This document shows, piece after piece, positions 12,232-60,200 of a stretch of DNA of 64,000 bases. This stretch comes from Octopus sinensis (Eukaryota): contig NC_043000.1 in NCBI RefSeq assembly GCF_006345805.1, positions 60,698,001 to 60,762,000 on the forward strand. Reading direction: 5' to 3'. The notes under the pieces were generated by a model. That model worked only from the letters and a program-made list of their open reading frames with translations, made no database searches and had not been told where the DNA came from. The position numbers and the translations under genes are program-made. The first letter of the stretch is position 1. Each line of letters starts with the position of its first letter.

Positions 12232-15200
12232 CTGAAATATAGACAATAGAAGATGACAACAATGTTAATCAATAATGACAATGTGACAGGGGAACAGTGA
12301 CTGTAAAGTTAATTTGAAATATAAAAAAAAACTTTCAGACATTTTAAGCATTTGACAGTAACCAGAGGATAGTTAGTTTTCAGGATGTCACACTGGATCT
12401 TGATTCTGGCCTGTATAAGTCATGTCATAAACCCAACAAGCATCTGAAGTATATGAACCAACTATCAAACCATCCTCGACATGTAATTAGGTCACTAATG
12501 AATAATGTTTCTACCAAGATATCCATGCTTTTAGCTAATGAAGAAATATTCAACCAAAACTCTGAATATTACAATGAAACCTTAGTTCAAACTGAATATG
12601 TTGACAGAATTACCTACCTTCCCAAATACTGTATCTATTTGAAACACCAGAAAAATAGTAACTTACATACTAGTAGAAAGTGTACAGGTAATAATCTTGA
12701 TACTACAAAGAATGTCAGCCATCATGATGGAGTTAGCTCTGATTTGTGTATGCACTATGGTAATAATACAACTACCAGATTAAATATGCATAATAATAGA
12801 AGTCAATGCAATAATAGCAACAATAGGCAAACTAATAATAGACATAATAGGAAAATAAATATTAATATCTAAAATATATTAAATAGCAACACTGTTTAGA
12901 ATAAAGAGCATATTAACCACTAAACCATAGGTAGAAATAAGTGCATCAAAACTTTGGATCCTATTTGTAATGCCAATGTAAAATATATTCTTTTCTACTC
13001 TAGGCACAAACTGGATATGTCTATTAACCTCCAACAATAGAGAGCAGTCGCCACATTTTATTCCATAGCAGCTATCTCTGAAGAGCACAGCGTTACATAA
13101 TTGGAGTATTACCTAACAGTCTGTTGAATCTCTAGTGCGAAACCAATTGACCATAATGGATATTGGCTGTAACGGATACATAATACCATACACTTTGATT
13201 AATATCTATATATAATTATTAGCAACAGAAACAGTATTAGTACGAAAAGTAATTTTTAAATCCAACTCAATGTGAATGAGTCTGAACACACGCCAAGATA
13301 TTGCAGTATTTATTTTGAAAGGTCCTCTCATAAAGATGCATGCTGCCATGGTGCACAAAGGCATAGATATATATATATTAGCAGATAAAAATCATCTGGT
13401 ATAAGTACTTGAGCTGCCAGATCACATGATTCCAGTGCATTGCACTTCTTCAGTAGCAGGTATCTGGGGATCCCATACCAGACAAACCTTACTGCCACGA
13501 TACGTAGAGTATGAGTGTCTTTCCAGTCAATGATGTCACAAATAACCAGCTATGATATATGTTATTGCTTTTATGCACCATGCATCTATATGAGAGGATC
13601 TCTCAAAGAGAATACTGCAGTATTCTGTATTCTAACAAGTCATCCATGTTAAGTCGGATATATAAATTGCCTTTTGGTACTTATACTGATTATTAGATCC
13701 CTGGAGACCAAGTGAGAAAGAAAAACAGCTGGTTTTAGCAGCTGCTAATTTTAATATTAAGAAAAAATCACTTTCTTTTGATATGATGATGGAAAATTCA
13801 ATTGAATATACGGTTATATTTGAAACAATCTTACCTGAGTTCTGAAATAGACATTGGCACTGGTCAAAGCTTTAATAAGTTGTGCTGAATGCTGGAAATG
13901 GACATTATCTGGAAAAAAATAAAATGAGAAAGCATTAATTTAGTTATGACAATTGTTTTAATTGTTCATTTTGTATAAAATAAATAATAATCAATGTAAC
14001 CTTATTCACTTAGGGTTAGGGTTACTATATATTCACTATATAATTCTCACTTTGCCTGTATGTGAATGTGTATATACATATGACTTGTGTTAGCTTGTAC
14101 TGGATGAGGTTTAACAGACACTCTGTGAAGCTAGCATGTTCTACAACAACAAATATTGTCCAGTACATAGTAAGATTCAACCATAAACAAATAAACAGTC
14201 TATCCTGTAATATGTAATTAACAATCTAAATAATAGTATTAACTCAAAATCTAATAATAAAGATTACTACACAAATCTTAGAATGACAGAAAACAACAAT
14301 ACTAATCCATCCAATCAAGTGAACTCTGCAATTTTAGCATCAGATCTCTGCGTCCACTTGAATGATGCCTTAGTAAGAATTTTGTATATAAATGTATGTT
14401 CCATACATGCACAGGGAAATGTCTATGCATATATAAGGTAGGCTGTACATGCAGTTTCAAATAGAGAGAGAGAGAGAGAGAAAGTGATAGAGAGTATGGC
14501 AATTATATAGAGAAGGGGAATGTATAAAAGATAGAGAAAGCCAGGTAGACAGACTGAGAATGGTAGATTTGGTGATCTAAAAGTTGAGTTATTTCCCATA
14601 ACAAATTATATATTTTGATTAATAATAAACATAAACCTTCTTGGAATGCAGATTTCAAAAATCAAATCTGTTTCTGTCAAGCGGATGCACTGTTTTCAAG
14701 CCTATCCATGATATACATACATGCACTCTCATGAAGAGGGTGGTGTTGGAGTGGTAAGGGCAAGTGTGGGAGCAGGGAAAGAAGCCAGGCTAAATACACA
14801 CACAAGAGTTACAGCATGGAGTAGGTAAGATCCGGGCTACATGTTTTATAGCTGGCGAAACCTCAGAAATGGTAAAAATCCAAATGAGGTGTATACCACT
14901 AGCTACTCTTCAGGCCAAGGAGTAGTTGGTGGTAAACACCTTGCTTGAATTTTTACTACTTCTGAGGTTCTGCCCACTATGAAACATATGTAGCCTGGAT
15001 CTTACCTACTCCATTCCATAACACTTGTACTCTTATTTACACACCCAGCAACCCTGGTCACCTACTGTGGAATATAGAAACTTTTTTCAGCTTCTCATTC
15101 TCCAATATGAAAAAATCCGCAACCTTCCGTCTCAATAAACCACTATTGTCCCTGAAAGTTGTTTTTTATTATATTTACTATGGATTGCTTGAAGTTAACT

Positions 15201-57200: not shown

Positions 57201-60200
57201 AGGAGAGAGATAGGGAGTGTGATGATGAGAAGGATGGATGCACTTGCACTGAGTGAAACTAAGATGAAAGGTAAGGGTATGTACCAGTTTGGTGATGTGG
57301 CTGGACAAGTGTCAGGAGTGGGAGGGCTCATGAGGAAGTGGCATTGCTGGTGAGTGAGCATGTGCGGGAGAGTGTGATGGAGTGGAGGGGAGTGTCTTCA
57401 AGGTTAATGTGGGTTAAGATGAGGTAGGGAGGGGAGATGTGGGTGTTTTTTAGTGCATATTGTCCAGTGGTCCAGGGACTGAAAGGAGTGAGGAAGAAGT
57501 CGAGGAGTTCTAGAGGAGACTGACAGAGTGTGTGGATAGGGTGGGGAAACGTGGCTATGTGGTGGTGCTGGGTGATTTGAATGCACATGTGGAAAATGGG
57601 CCGAGACTGCTGAGGACATGTGTAAGCTTGCAAGGAATGAAGCTAGTATGCTTCACTAGATGTGTAATGTCAGTGTGCATACATGACAGAGTGTGAGTGC
57701 CCTGAGAGAAAAGTTGGACATAAGAAGCATCAGATGTGGTGTGCAAGGGAGACAAGTGTACTGGTATGGTCATGTGTTGCGTATGGATGGGGATAGCTGT
57801 GTAAAAAAGTTGGACATAAGAAGCATCAGATGTGGTGTGCAAGGGAGACAAGTGTACTGGTATGGTCATGTGTTGCGTATGGATGGGGATAGCTGTGTAA
57901 AAAATGTCACAGTCTAGCAGTAAAGGTAACCTGTGGAAGAGGTGGACCCAGGAAGACCTGGGATGAGGTGGTGAAGCACAACCTTTGAACATTGGGCCTC
58001 ACAGAGGCAATGGCTAGTGACCGAGACCTTTGGAGATATGCTGTACTTGAGAAGACCTGGCAAGCTAAGTGAGACCATATCCATGGCCTAAGTGAGACCA
58101 TATCCATTTAAGAGTACCCTTCAATCACTGGGTAATAAACTGCACTTGCAAAGACCTGTTAAGTCAAGTGAAGTCAATGTTGTGACCAATGACAGTACTG
58201 CCTGATTGGCACCTGTGCTGGTGGCATGTAAAAAGCACCATTCAAGTGTTATCTTTGCCAGTGCCACCTGATTGGATCCTGTATCAGTGGCACGTAAAAA
58301 GCACCATTTGAGCATGGTCGTTGTCAGTGTTGCCTGACTGGCTTCTGTGCTGATGGCACATAAAAAGTACTATTCAAGCGTGGTCTATGCCAGTACTGCC
58401 TGATTGGCCCTTGTGTTGGTGGCACATAAAAAGCACCCACTACACTCTCGGAGTGGTTGGCGTTAAGAAGGGCATCCAGCTGTAGAAACTTTGCCAGATG
58501 TGACTGGTGCAGCCTTCTGGCTGACCAGCTCTCAGTCAAACCATCCAACCCTTGCCAGCATGGAAAGCGGGTGTTAAACAACGATGATGATATATATATA
58601 TATATTTCACTCATAAGAAATAGGTAAGTAAATAAATAAAATAAACATACAGTTTATCAATATATAAATATAATTAGAAATAGAAATGAAAATAATAAAT
58701 TGAACAATTAAATAAGTTCAATTCAATTTTATTATTTTATACAAATGAATGATACATCTCATAAATTACAGCTGTTTCTACACTATTAAAATTTATCTAT
58801 CTATCTATCTATCTATATATATATATATATATATATATATATATATATATATATATATATATATATGTTGATATACATATTTAGATATATATATATATTT
58901 ATATATATTAATATTATTAATAGTTAGGGAATGTAATAATTCCAAGCTAACAGGGAAAAAAATTTCAATTTAGCACATTAAACCAAAATTCACAATATAT
59001 TATATATATATATATATATATATATATATATTATATATATATATATATATATAAATTAGAGACAAACTGCTATTTAGTTATTCCATCATAGTGAAAAGAT
59101 ATTATCTATAATAACCACATAGAAATTAATTAAATATCTTATAATTATTATTCTAAAAATCTCATAACAAATCATACATTAAATTGACTATGCGCATTTC
59201 AGGACTAAATATATAAATCAATAATATTAAAACTTAATTTTTAAAAATCTAAAATTCAATGTTAATTCAATTTAAAAATATTTAGCCACTCTTCAGGTTA
59301 AAAAAATAACATAAATAAATTTAGATATTATAATAAAATAATAAATATATACATATATGTATATTAACAGTAAATAATTCAATAAAATTTAACAATATTA
59401 ATGTAAAGCAAAAACATGACTTATCTTATTGATGAAAACCAATTAAAAGAAATTTTAAACTTTAAACTTACAATCTAGCGTTGTAAAAAAACCTATCTCA
59501 TAAAATGTGATGTAAACAATATATAATAAATAAATAAATAGATATATGTATTTATCAATAAAAATAAAAATAATAAAAAAACCTGATGTAATATACCATT
59601 TACGGGGAAAAATTCTAAATTCTCAATAATTTAAAACTACGACATTATATGCAAAATATAAAATCAATTAAATGTCCATAAATTTCTTTTAACTGGTTTT
59701 CATCAATAAGTCATCTTTTTGCTTTATATTAATATTGCTAAATTTTATCGAATTATTTACTGTTAATATACATATATTTATATATTTATTGTTTTATTAT
59801 AATATCTAAATTTATCTATGTTATTGTTTTGACCTGAAGAGTTGCTAAATATTTTAAAATTTAATTAATATTGAATTTTAAATTAGTAAAAATTAAATTT
59901 TAATATTATCAATTTATATATTTAGTCATGAAACGTGTATAGTCAATTTAATGTTTGATTTGTTATGAGATTTTTAGAATAATAATTATATTTAAGTAAT
60001 TTCTATGTGGTTATTATAGATGATATCTTTTCATTATGATGGAATAACTAAATAGCGGTTTGTCTCTAATTTATATCTATATAGATGTATGTTAAGATTA
60101 TAATAATAATTGGCTTACGTTAAATATTTCTTGACTTCAGGTGTAAAGTTCAACTGTAATTGTAACGCACTTTGAAGGTTGACAACCTTCAATGTCACAA

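Follow-up and report, generated by a model that had tools for sequence, protein, structure and literature searches.

Six inverted repeats in the introns of an octopus DPP4-family gene are very probably insertion scars of Penelope-like elements (PLEs), each consisting of two 5′-truncated pseudo-LTR (pLTR) copies that lie head to head. Back-to-back truncated ends of this kind match the published insertion pattern of PLEs, and likely do not represent a new element class; the architecture is a known one, seen in a new genome. The preliminary description had set them apart as ‘ribozyme foldback’ elements. A separate class of this kind is unsupported, since solo, tandem and head-to-head copies with variable junctions are all part of the published PLE pattern.

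Six intronic palindromes and their hammerhead motifs

The window, i.e., the whole stretch of DNA analysed, comprises 64,000 nt of the forward strand of Octopus sinensis (GCF_006345805.1, NC_043000.1, 60,698,001–60,762,000). All six palindromes (E1–E6; Table 1) are located inside introns of a minus-strand gene of the DPP4 (S9 peptidase) family, and each is a member of its own separate dispersed repeat family. Their mutual dissimilarity, noted when they were first described, extends to the family references, which have only short AT-rich words in common. The coordinates first assigned fall short on one side in E1 (which starts at 13213), E2 (which ends at 15215), E3 (ends at 20741), E4 (starts at 37177) and E5 (ends at 50605). 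A 3′ extension of ~180 nt is present on the right arm only of E2, and the right arm of E3 has a tail of ~25–30 nt, while both arms of E6 end at TA-rich repeats and are tail-less. The E4 pair was missed by the palindrome finder, and its right arm reached a local alignment score of 54 against a maximum of 51 among 200 shuffles. Five of the ten inverted repeats that the finder returned in the window are without a hammerhead motif.

Table 1. Positions of the host gene, the palindromes, their arms and their hammerhead motifs in the window.
Element	Feature	Positions	Strand
Host gene	DPP4 (S9 peptidase) family, from exon matches	12100–56603	−
Host gene	Exon matches	56460–56603, 38269–38382, 30954–31112, 26634–26736, 20063–20121, 17808–17880, 13835–13908, from 12231 downward; more exons past 64000	−
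E1	Head-to-head pair, ~350-nt hammerhead repeat family (partial-tandem, retrozyme-like)	13213–13691	
E1	Left arm	13213–13550	−
E1	Right arm, without motif	13549–13691	+
E1	Hammerhead motif, A13G in window copy; family majority core intact	13414–13459	−
E2	Pair	14792–15215	
E2	Left arm	14792–14921	−
E2	Right arm	14920–15215	+
E2	Hammerhead motif, long 59-nt stem-II region, G12A in window copy	14831–14917	−
E3	pLTR pair, joined at internal palindrome, centre 20521	20326–20741	
E3	Left hammerhead motif, two core changes (U4G, G8A)	20389–20427	−
E3	Right hammerhead motif, intact core	20615–20652	+
E4	Pair	37177–37403	
E4	Left arm	37177–37349	−
E4	Right arm, short, marginal, without motif	about 37355–37403	+
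E4	Hammerhead motif, intact core, weakened stem I	37280–37323	−
E5	pLTR pair, Penelope-type element	49988–50605	
E5	Left arm, with expanded (AAT)n/(GAC)n tract	49988–50466	−
E5	Left-arm tRNA-like head, internally deleted	about 50444–50466	
E5	Right arm, tail-bearing	50472–50605	+
E5	Left hammerhead motif, 0 departures from descriptor	50022–50068	−
E5	Right hammerhead motif, stem III short by 3 nt	50476–50520	+
E6	3′ UTR/pLTR pair of PLE	59051–60074	
E6	Left arm	59051–59672	−
E6	Right arm	59680–60074	+
E6	Left hammerhead motif, ~90-nt AT-rich stem II, intact core	59183–59301	−
E6	Right hammerhead motif, intact core	59829–59947	+

Each palindrome had been described as carrying an outward-facing type-I minimal hammerhead motif, and this is borne out. 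The motif is found on the minus strand of the left arm in all six elements, the window copies show 0–2 departures from a descriptor made up of the core, 4-bp stems I and II and a palindromic stem III, and the motifs face away from the centre throughout. On the right arm, a plus-strand motif is confined to E3, E5 and E6. In E2 this arm begins within the core, and in E1 and E4 only beyond the motif, on its downstream side. At ≤2 departures the descriptor gave 10 matches in the window, seven of them inside the six elements; 12 local dinucleotide shuffles averaged 2.6 matches and never exceeded 5. When no more than 1 departure and only a short stem-II loop were allowed, four matches remained in the window, all of them inside the elements (0.08 in shuffles). 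In 390 kb of random genome, 10 matches at ≤1 departure compare with 0, 0 and 0 in shuffled sequence, while the noisy setting of ≤2 departures with long loops gave 47 against 17–26. An earlier, too strict version of the descriptor matched E5 only. Rfam, whose Hammerhead_1 model is built on canonical motifs, placed that model in the window only at E4 (19.3 bits, where the cut-off is 34), the rest being repeat noise.

The majority sequence of all six families retains an intact hammerhead core, and core positions are less variable than their neighbours (109/2056 vs. 1768/20395 changed). All 11 core bases are kept in just 107 of 191 arms, and three of the six minus-strand window copies (E1, E2 and E3) have core changes. 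The folding energies of single motifs are no better than those of shuffles (z −1.5 to +1.2), as expected because the motifs need a dimer, and were not used as evidence. Core, stems I and II and palindromic stem III are all present in the majority sequence of each of the six families, as in type-I minimal hammerheads.

A probable Penelope-like origin and the arrangement of the arms

The proposed PLE origin is supported by E3, E5 and E6, whose families adjoin a PLE GIY-YIG/RT coding region at other loci and are therefore pseudo-LTRs. The order at five E5 loci (L122, L205, L221/L129, L222 and L101) is ORF end, ~30 nt, tRNA-like head, (AAT)n and hammerhead motif, and relatives carry RT and a GIY-YIG label. 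E6 lies behind a PLE ORF in eight of 30 loci (Atlas GIY-YIG cluster 0.94, 52% of members), and E3 in one of 30 (L039). No ORF link was found within 1.5 kb for E1, E2 or E4 in 30, 23 and 30 loci, respectively, these being best matches only. Pfam left GIY-YIG unmatched on the degraded ORF pieces, and permissive BLAST with E6 was swamped by AT-rich matches.

Three PLE coding remnants had also been reported within the window. Those at 16143–17259 (minus strand) and 62523–63868 (plus strand) match RT/GIY-YIG proteins. The third, at 12348–12782 (plus strand), is a putative PLE remnant, assigned from motifs and from weak matches in other loci; a homologue search with it returned nothing. The remnants are unconnected to the six elements: no family sequence adjoins them, and no descriptor match lies behind the remnant near 63.9 kb. 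A PLE link by way of these local remnants is unsupported, and the real links are those at the other loci.

The suspected orientation bias is supported, for E5 genome-wide. Among 169 family loci, 74 are head-to-head and three tail-to-tail, pair counts being inflated for E1 and E2, whose loci were chosen with whole-palindrome queries; 81 loci are solo, including 23 of the 30 for E4. Tandem neighbours occur in 19 of the 169 loci, E1 accounting for 10, with no long arrays in the 3-kb loci. Across the genome, anchors from E5 gave 840 head-to-head against three tail-to-tail pairs, where 3.4 are expected by chance; outward pairs are ~240-fold above chance and inward pairs at chance. Pair arms were assigned with family references. 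In E1 (10/14), E2 (19/19), E3 (7/10) and E5 (13/14), a total of 49 of 57 pairs have the long end, or tail, on just one arm, the ~180-nt E2 extension exceeding the published tail of 30–40 nt. Tails were found in none of six E6 pairs, and E4 pairs are too few. In 23 of the 49 tailed pairs the arms are reciprocal, each with sequence absent from the other, and the tail belongs to whichever arm reaches less far in the 5′ direction. At loci L122 and L222, for example, the tail-less arm extends into the ORF and the short arm holds the tail. A further 16 pairs are nested, and three have equal 5′ ends.

The proposed mechanism for these arrangements is insertion from both ends of a cut target. An RT-GIY-YIG protein would cleave the target on both strands, in many cases within AT-rich or microsatellite sequence, and reverse transcription would start at either of two internal RNA sites 50–250 nt downstream of the ribozyme. 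Each target end would give rise to one cDNA, both cDNAs would stop early, and their 5′ ends would be joined. With both cDNAs starting downstream of the ribozyme, short cDNAs would therefore keep it and would have their 3′ ends outward by construction. Cutting of both strands with extension from two internal RT starts has been described (PMC11167929), as has an inverted 5′-truncated copy with a one-sided tail (PMC8557442). The same source treats the formation of inverted PLE ends as an open question. A head-to-head bias has been reported (PMC3846280), and opposite-strand pairs of minimal hammerheads 100–700 bp apart are known (PMC4209133). The ribozyme would have served the RNA of the source element, likely as a dimer or with protein assistance; the ribozyme copies left in introns are likely inert, and pre-mRNA foldback would be a by-product.

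The same PLE origin could also yield an inverted arm through self-priming, in which a small palindrome lets the cDNA or antisense template fold back and be copied on itself, as proposed for PLEs (PMC3846280). Some pair junctions do sit on small palindromes: that of E3 is centred on the internal palindrome of its family, and a short palindrome precedes the E5 head, where several junctions fall. The nested pairs and those with equal 5′ ends are also consistent with it. However, in the 23 reciprocal pairs, including L122 and L222, neither arm contains the other, and arms that are not copies of each other favour priming from both target ends. Central deletions that occurred later could make arms seem reciprocal. 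Self-priming is considered unlikely overall. The PLE explanation has its own counterpoints in the missing ORF links of E1, E2 and E4, the mostly solo E4, the long E2 extension and the tail-less E6. No clear target-site duplication, a feature that is variable and often absent in PLEs, flanks any of the six window elements.

Two other readings fare worse. It is improbable that a foldback class is retained in introns because its antisense arm hides the ribozyme and serves as a source of dsRNA for ADAR. The geometry would suit, since transcripts of either strand have the antisense arm on the 5′ side of the ribozyme, and predicted minus-strand folds pair the motif with the other arm (66/88 nt in E2, 35/42 in E3, 41/48 in E5 and 110/120 in E6); depletion of retrozymes in introns has also been reported (10.64898/2026.07.22.740005). 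The expectation that any transcript crossing an element contains both a ribozyme and its antisense counterpart, however, holds for 28 of 75 pairs, in which both arms span the core, and for three of the six window elements (partly for E2), and fails for E1 and E4, which are without an antisense partner. The many solo loci and the arms with altered cores also argue against masking. Monomers of minimal PLE hammerheads did not cleave and dimers did so little (PMC4209133), or the PLE protein was needed (PMC11167929), and there would therefore be little to mask. Only six of 60 inverted repeats in the 390 kb of random genome carry the motif at ≤2 departures, so that dsRNA would mostly be supplied by other repeats. 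Antisense masking is patchy and probably a by-product. The remaining reading, which takes the palindromes for MITE/foldback DNA transposons or for neighbours of abundant repeats by chance, with chance motifs in AT-rich DNA, could draw on the abundance of inverted repeats, the noisy descriptor at two departures and the marginal right arm of E4. It is hardly tenable given the empty shuffled controls at ≤1 departure, the excess of outward pairs and the ORF links to PLEs. This reading is largely refuted: arms are unequal, outer ends differ, junctions vary and solo arms occur, unlike fixed terminal inverted repeats.

Among known systems, the closest likeness is to the pseudo-LTRs of EN+ PLEs (Penelope/Poseidon, Neptune; PMC8557442, PMC3846280), which share the head-to-head inverted 5′ copy, variable truncation, one-arm tail, partial tandems, AT-rich or microsatellite targets and an RT + GIY-YIG ORF upstream of the repeat. 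The octopus copies differ in being mostly ORF-less, in the E2 extension, in the tail-less E6 and in the tRNA-like cassette of the E5 pLTR. The minimal type-I hammerheads of metazoan PLEs (PMC4209133) resemble them in the core, short palindromic stem III and an extra base before stem II (E3 and E5), and likewise occur as many families per genome, mostly solo with some opposite-strand pairs, whereas the stem-II regions of E2 and E6 are very long (about 60 and 90 nt). No octopus example was found in the literature searched. Animal non-LTR retrozymes are also non-coding, PLE-derived units of 150–400 nt with a type-I hammerhead (PMC7229834; 10.64898/2026.07.22.740005), which E1 resembles with its ~350-nt unit and partial tandems, but they are defined by head-to-tail tandems, while the octopus families are mostly solo or head-to-head.

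A tRNA-like head on the E5 pseudo-LTR

Directly after the PLE stop codon, the E5 pseudo-LTR opens with a tRNA-like cassette that has an A box and a B box. Literature searches found no earlier report of this arrangement, and the unit may already be catalogued as a SINE; octopus SINEs were reportedly described by Ohshima and Okada in 1994. The family has about ten thousand copies in the octopus genome, mostly short, which tend to start at the head in a SINE-like manner: 18 of 43 head matches begin within −11 to +4 of the head. At L222 both boxes are intact, A at 8 and B at 53; they are 45 nt apart, as in other tRNA-like heads, and the unit is without a run of four T. A/B-box pairs at such spacing number nine in 454 kb, against 0, 0 and 0 in shuffled sequence. 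The head aligned to positions 8–63 of the Rfam tRNA model at 13.4 and 10.8 bits (cut-off 29). No tRNA-like head was found in L141 or in 12 loci at E ≤ 0.05, and ARAGORN predicted 0 genes in 11 loci. The acceptor stem is lost, and the head matches those of other repeats in the genome at 44–46 of 66 nt. A non-autonomous SINE shares its 3′ end with a LINE; here the whole unit, head included, is the PLE 3′ end. The E5 unit would work in a SINE-like manner with a PLE partner.

The cassette is a predicted internal Pol III promoter, which would explain the many short SINE-like copies. It is possible, at somewhat short of even chances, that the E5 pseudo-LTR captured a tRNA-derived Pol III promoter, that an RNA of ~260 nt with the hammerhead and priming sites is copied as a Penelope-mobilised SINE, and that the 840 pairs, many of them with reciprocal arms, record two-end insertion. 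A little more doubtful is a head that came in as a passenger with an old SINE insertion and has lost its role in transcription, short copies starting there because the adjacent palindrome marks the pLTR edge or stalls RT. The weak tRNA score, the lost acceptor stem and the similarity to other heads would fit a passenger, and pLTRs with a 5′-end palindrome have been described (PMC3846280); the intact boxes at retained spacing, the absence of a four-T run and the pile-up of starts at the head argue against it.

A captured promoter would have parallels elsewhere. The schistosome Sm-alpha/Sj-alpha elements (PMC6765202, PMC2770079) also place a hammerhead after a tRNA-related head of Pol III type, in >10,000 copies, but, as described there, they are tandem and SINE-like with a canonical hammerhead, and are not tied to a PLE ORF, a tail or pairs, whereas E5 is physically the PLE 3′ end. 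Helenus, Ajax and Cassandra TRIMs likewise have a terminal repeat with a small-RNA-derived Pol III promoter, possibly acquired by SINE insertion; they are non-autonomous LTR elements with a PBS, a PPT and fixed TSDs (PMC10886601), while E5 is a PLE pseudo-LTR that also stands behind a coding ORF.

Penelope-like ends in the octopus genome

Near-perfect minimal hammerheads occur about once per 39 kb (10 in 390 kb), which would put tens of thousands of them in the octopus genome; many of the repeats now labelled SINE, MITE or unknown may be PLE ends. Comparing the side of the tail with 5′ reach in hundreds of young pairs can tell two-end priming apart from self-priming. If the reading of the E5 head as a captured promoter is true, E5 would be the PLE counterpart of SINEs and of TRIMs with Pol III promoters, which suggests that schistosome Sm-alpha-type elements could share this origin, and its 840 head-to-head pairs would be a large natural data set on the unsolved integration of PLEs.

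Hammerhead motifs in six intronic palindromes

The six inverted repeats E1–E6 are real structures, not chance matches, and are probably derived from Penelope-like elements (PLEs). All are bracketed by exons of a minus-strand DPP4-family gene, as expected from their preliminary description as intronic. With a type-I minimal hammerhead descriptor (core, 4-bp stems I and II, palindromic stem III), a loose setting of up to two departures and stem-II loops of up to 130 nt gave ten matches in the window, seven of them inside elements (one each in E1–E5, two in E6), whereas 12 local dinucleotide shuffles of the window gave a mean of 2.6 and a maximum of 5. 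With at most one departure and short loops, all four window matches lie in elements, against 0.08 in shuffles. The outward orientation described earlier is borne out: the minus strand carries all left-arm motifs, the plus strand those in the right arms of E3, E5 and E6. A palindrome finder reported ten inverted repeats in the window, five with a motif. E4, the sole element reported by Rfam in the window (below the cut-off), escaped this finder; its right arm scores 54, the maximum of 200 shuffles being 51.

Features in the window and at other loci (L-numbers) of the same genome
Feature	Location	Strand	Description
E1	13213–13691	left arm −, right arm +
E2	14792–15215	left arm −, right arm +
E3	20326–20741	left arm −, right arm +
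E4	37177–37403	left arm −, right arm +
E5	49988–50605	left arm −, right arm +
E6	59051–60074	left arm −, right arm +
E5 tract	50128–50360		in the window copy, a long (GAC)n run derived from (AAT)n
E4-family copy	55480–55588	+	second copy, solo, antisense to host gene
Palindrome	604–937		old, arms ~64%, motif absent
Palindrome	35056–35350		near-perfect, 138-bp arms (93%), no hammerhead motif; possibly a MITE or motif-less PLE end
PLE remnants	16143–17259; 62523–63868		coding; families other than E1–E6
LINE RT fragments	24271–29694	inverted pair	94–96% alike over ~1.1 kb; flank catalytic-serine exon of host gene (26634–26736); potential dsRNA much longer than any of the six elements
LINE remnant	44947–46892	−	long open frames; presumably RTE-type, judged by motifs
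Hammerhead-like motif	L201, ~1100–1180 (just past window end)		degenerate, not scored by descriptor; ~230 nt behind stop of 62523–63868 remnant
E3 pseudo-LTR start	L039, 1400–1510		about four 22-nt repeats; small palindrome in each is the joining site of the window's E3
E5 unit	L222, 770–880		ATG within hammerhead core starts a reading frame of 25 codons, ending in the tail region at a possible splice donor
Other hammerhead families	L218, 9315–9993; L194, 835–1035; L215, 1474 and 3715; L202; L214		random sample; include a tandem pair 588 nt apart and a palindrome-plus-tandem

A background sample of the 2.7-Gb genome (39 randomly chosen stretches of 10 kb, 390 kb in all) was compared with three shuffles. 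At most one departure gave 10 matches with short loops (shuffled 0, 0, 0) and 16 with long loops (3, 0, 0), while two departures with long loops gave 47 (19, 26, 17). This excess indicates that hammerhead motifs are common genome-wide, the loose setting being noisy. By-eye counting found a motif (up to two departures) in 6 of 60 inverted repeats of this sample, all six outward; one is probably a chance match.

Repeat families and their link to PLE coding regions

Each element has many genomic relatives, and the six family references have only short AT-rich words in common. The best 40 candidates were scored per family search, and 30 loci kept. In each of the six majority lines the core and both stems I and II are intact, and stem III is palindromic. 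Deviations from the majority occupy 109 of 2056 cells at core positions and 1768 of 20395 elsewhere, and all 11 core bases are kept in 107 of 191 arms. Judged from these alignments, the core is conserved among source elements and decays in copies.

After removal of 11 duplicates, the 169 loci (window copies included; neighbour limit 600 bp; overlapping classes) comprised 74 with a head-to-head neighbour, 3 tail-to-tail, 19 same-strand and 81 solo. The E1 and E2 queries were whole palindromes, which favours pairs in their counts; E3–E6 alone gave 40 head-to-head against 3 tail-to-tail among 116 loci. An unbiased test came from a 15-nt E5 anchor (9,796 genomic occurrences), whose pairs 10–400 nt apart were outward in 840 cases and inward in 3 (3.4 expected by chance), and the proposed orientation bias therefore holds genome-wide for this family. 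The intact 46-nt E5 motif occurs exactly 761 times in the genome. At L176, an E6 copy lies next to a shorter variant of E5 in which stem II is altered.

The proposed PLE origin is upheld for E3, E5 and E6 by ORFs at other loci. Upstream of E6, 8 of 30 loci carry a coding end that is GIY-YIG-type as judged by its motifs; Pfam gave no match to it, and in the Atlas it falls nearest to a GIY-YIG cluster (score 0.94, 52% of members). For E3, L039 has a decayed RT-to-GIY-YIG ORF ahead of the repeat (E 2e-4 to two PLE proteins). The E5 unit starts ~30 nt past an ORF end in L122, L205 (random sample), L221/L129, L222 and L101; relatives of this ORF carry RT, one being labelled GIY-YIG, and L129 and L221 together cover most of a 582-aa relative at 57–71% identity. 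A search of the E1, E2 and E4 family loci (30, 23 and 30) to 1.5 kb revealed no such ORF. The coding remnants at 16143–17259 and 62523–63868, among those in the window previously offered as the link, belong to other PLE families.

The E5 unit and its tRNA-like head

The E5 unit (~260 nt) comprises a tRNA-like head, (AAT)n, the hammerhead and a tail (a 3′ extension); in the copy in the window, the central part of the head is deleted. The L222 head has an A box from position 8 and a B box from 53, and the unit there lacks a run of four T. Such box pairs number 9 in 454 kb and 0 in each of three shuffles; six of the nine sit in other repeats, identical to the E5 head at 44–46 of 66 nt. The tRNA model of Rfam matches the head over model positions 8–63 at only 13.4 and 10.8 bits, and gave no match in L141. 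When an ORF-end-plus-head probe was run on 39 loci, 18 of its 43 matches (both arms counted) started at −11 to +4 of the head, one being the head of another repeat; 5 extended into the ORF or linker, 17 started further inside, and 3 at −17 are junction artefacts. The head is predicted from its sequence to be used by Pol III; this pile-up of starts could instead stem from a palindrome located there. The ATG within the E5 hammerhead core resembles an anole element whose ORF starts inside the ribozyme.

Pair formation and consequences for the host transcript

The long end is confined to one arm in 49 of 57 pairs (E1 10/14, E2 19/19, E3 7/10, E5 13/14) and in none of six E6 pairs, where both arms stop at TA repeats; only pairs with both arms reaching the 3′ region were counted, with cut-offs set by eye from end distributions. 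In the E2 family (L061–L090) this extension is ~180 nt, far exceeding the published PLE tail, which suggests widely spaced priming sites. A PLE protein is described as cutting and extending both target strands, from two internal RNA sites bounding the tail, and the PLE hammerhead as cleaving only with protein (Frangieh 2024; PMC11167929). Under such a process 3′ ends would face outward, one arm would have the tail and most short copies would include the ribozyme, as seen. Each pair would then comprise two cDNAs, with both target strands cut and extended. Self-priming from palindromic junctions has instead been proposed (Arkhipova 2013; PMC3846280), and the E3 junction does lie on a family palindrome. 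Against self-priming, in 23 of the 49 tailed pairs the tail belongs to the arm that extends less far 5′, so that neither sequence is contained in its partner; of the remaining pairs, 16 are nested, 3 equal and 7 undecided. Pairs like the 23 could also result from deletions at the centre of inserted copies, but they favour two cDNAs.

In the minus-strand host transcript, the E1, E2 and E3 motifs have core changes. Those of E5 and E6 are intact, with predicted pairing to the opposite arm over 41/48 and 110/120 nt, which fits the suggestion that the transcript holds a ribozyme with its own antisense. The suggestion does not extend to E4 (intact, unmasked, monomeric, with a weak stem I), and both arms span the core in only 28 of 75 pairs across families. 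As single motifs gave no cleavage and dimers little (Cervera 2014; PMC4209133), masking by the antisense arm is best read as a by-product. Most inverted repeats here lack a ribozyme. Long intronic foldbacks are plausible ADAR substrates.

The 'ribozyme foldback' elements put forward in the preliminary description show a known architecture rather than forming a new class: published accounts describe inverted 5′-truncated PLE copies with a one-sided tail (PMC8557442), head-to-head bias (PMC3846280) and dual minimal hammerheads on opposite strands 100–700 bp apart (PMC4209133). Retrozymes are described as PLE derivatives (10.64898/2026.07.22.740005; PMC7229834), Sm-alpha as tRNA-related SINEs with hammerheads (PMC6765202, PMC2770079), and LTRs as carrying tRNA/5S promoters (PMC10886601). 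Ribozymes go unmentioned in the accessible text of the octopus repeat literature (PMC13282606, PMC8967140), and neither a tRNA-headed pseudo-LTR nor octopus hammerheads are described in the accessible text of the PMC literature or 10.1101/596502. The value of these elements lies in the E5 variant and in the mechanistic test that the pairs allow.
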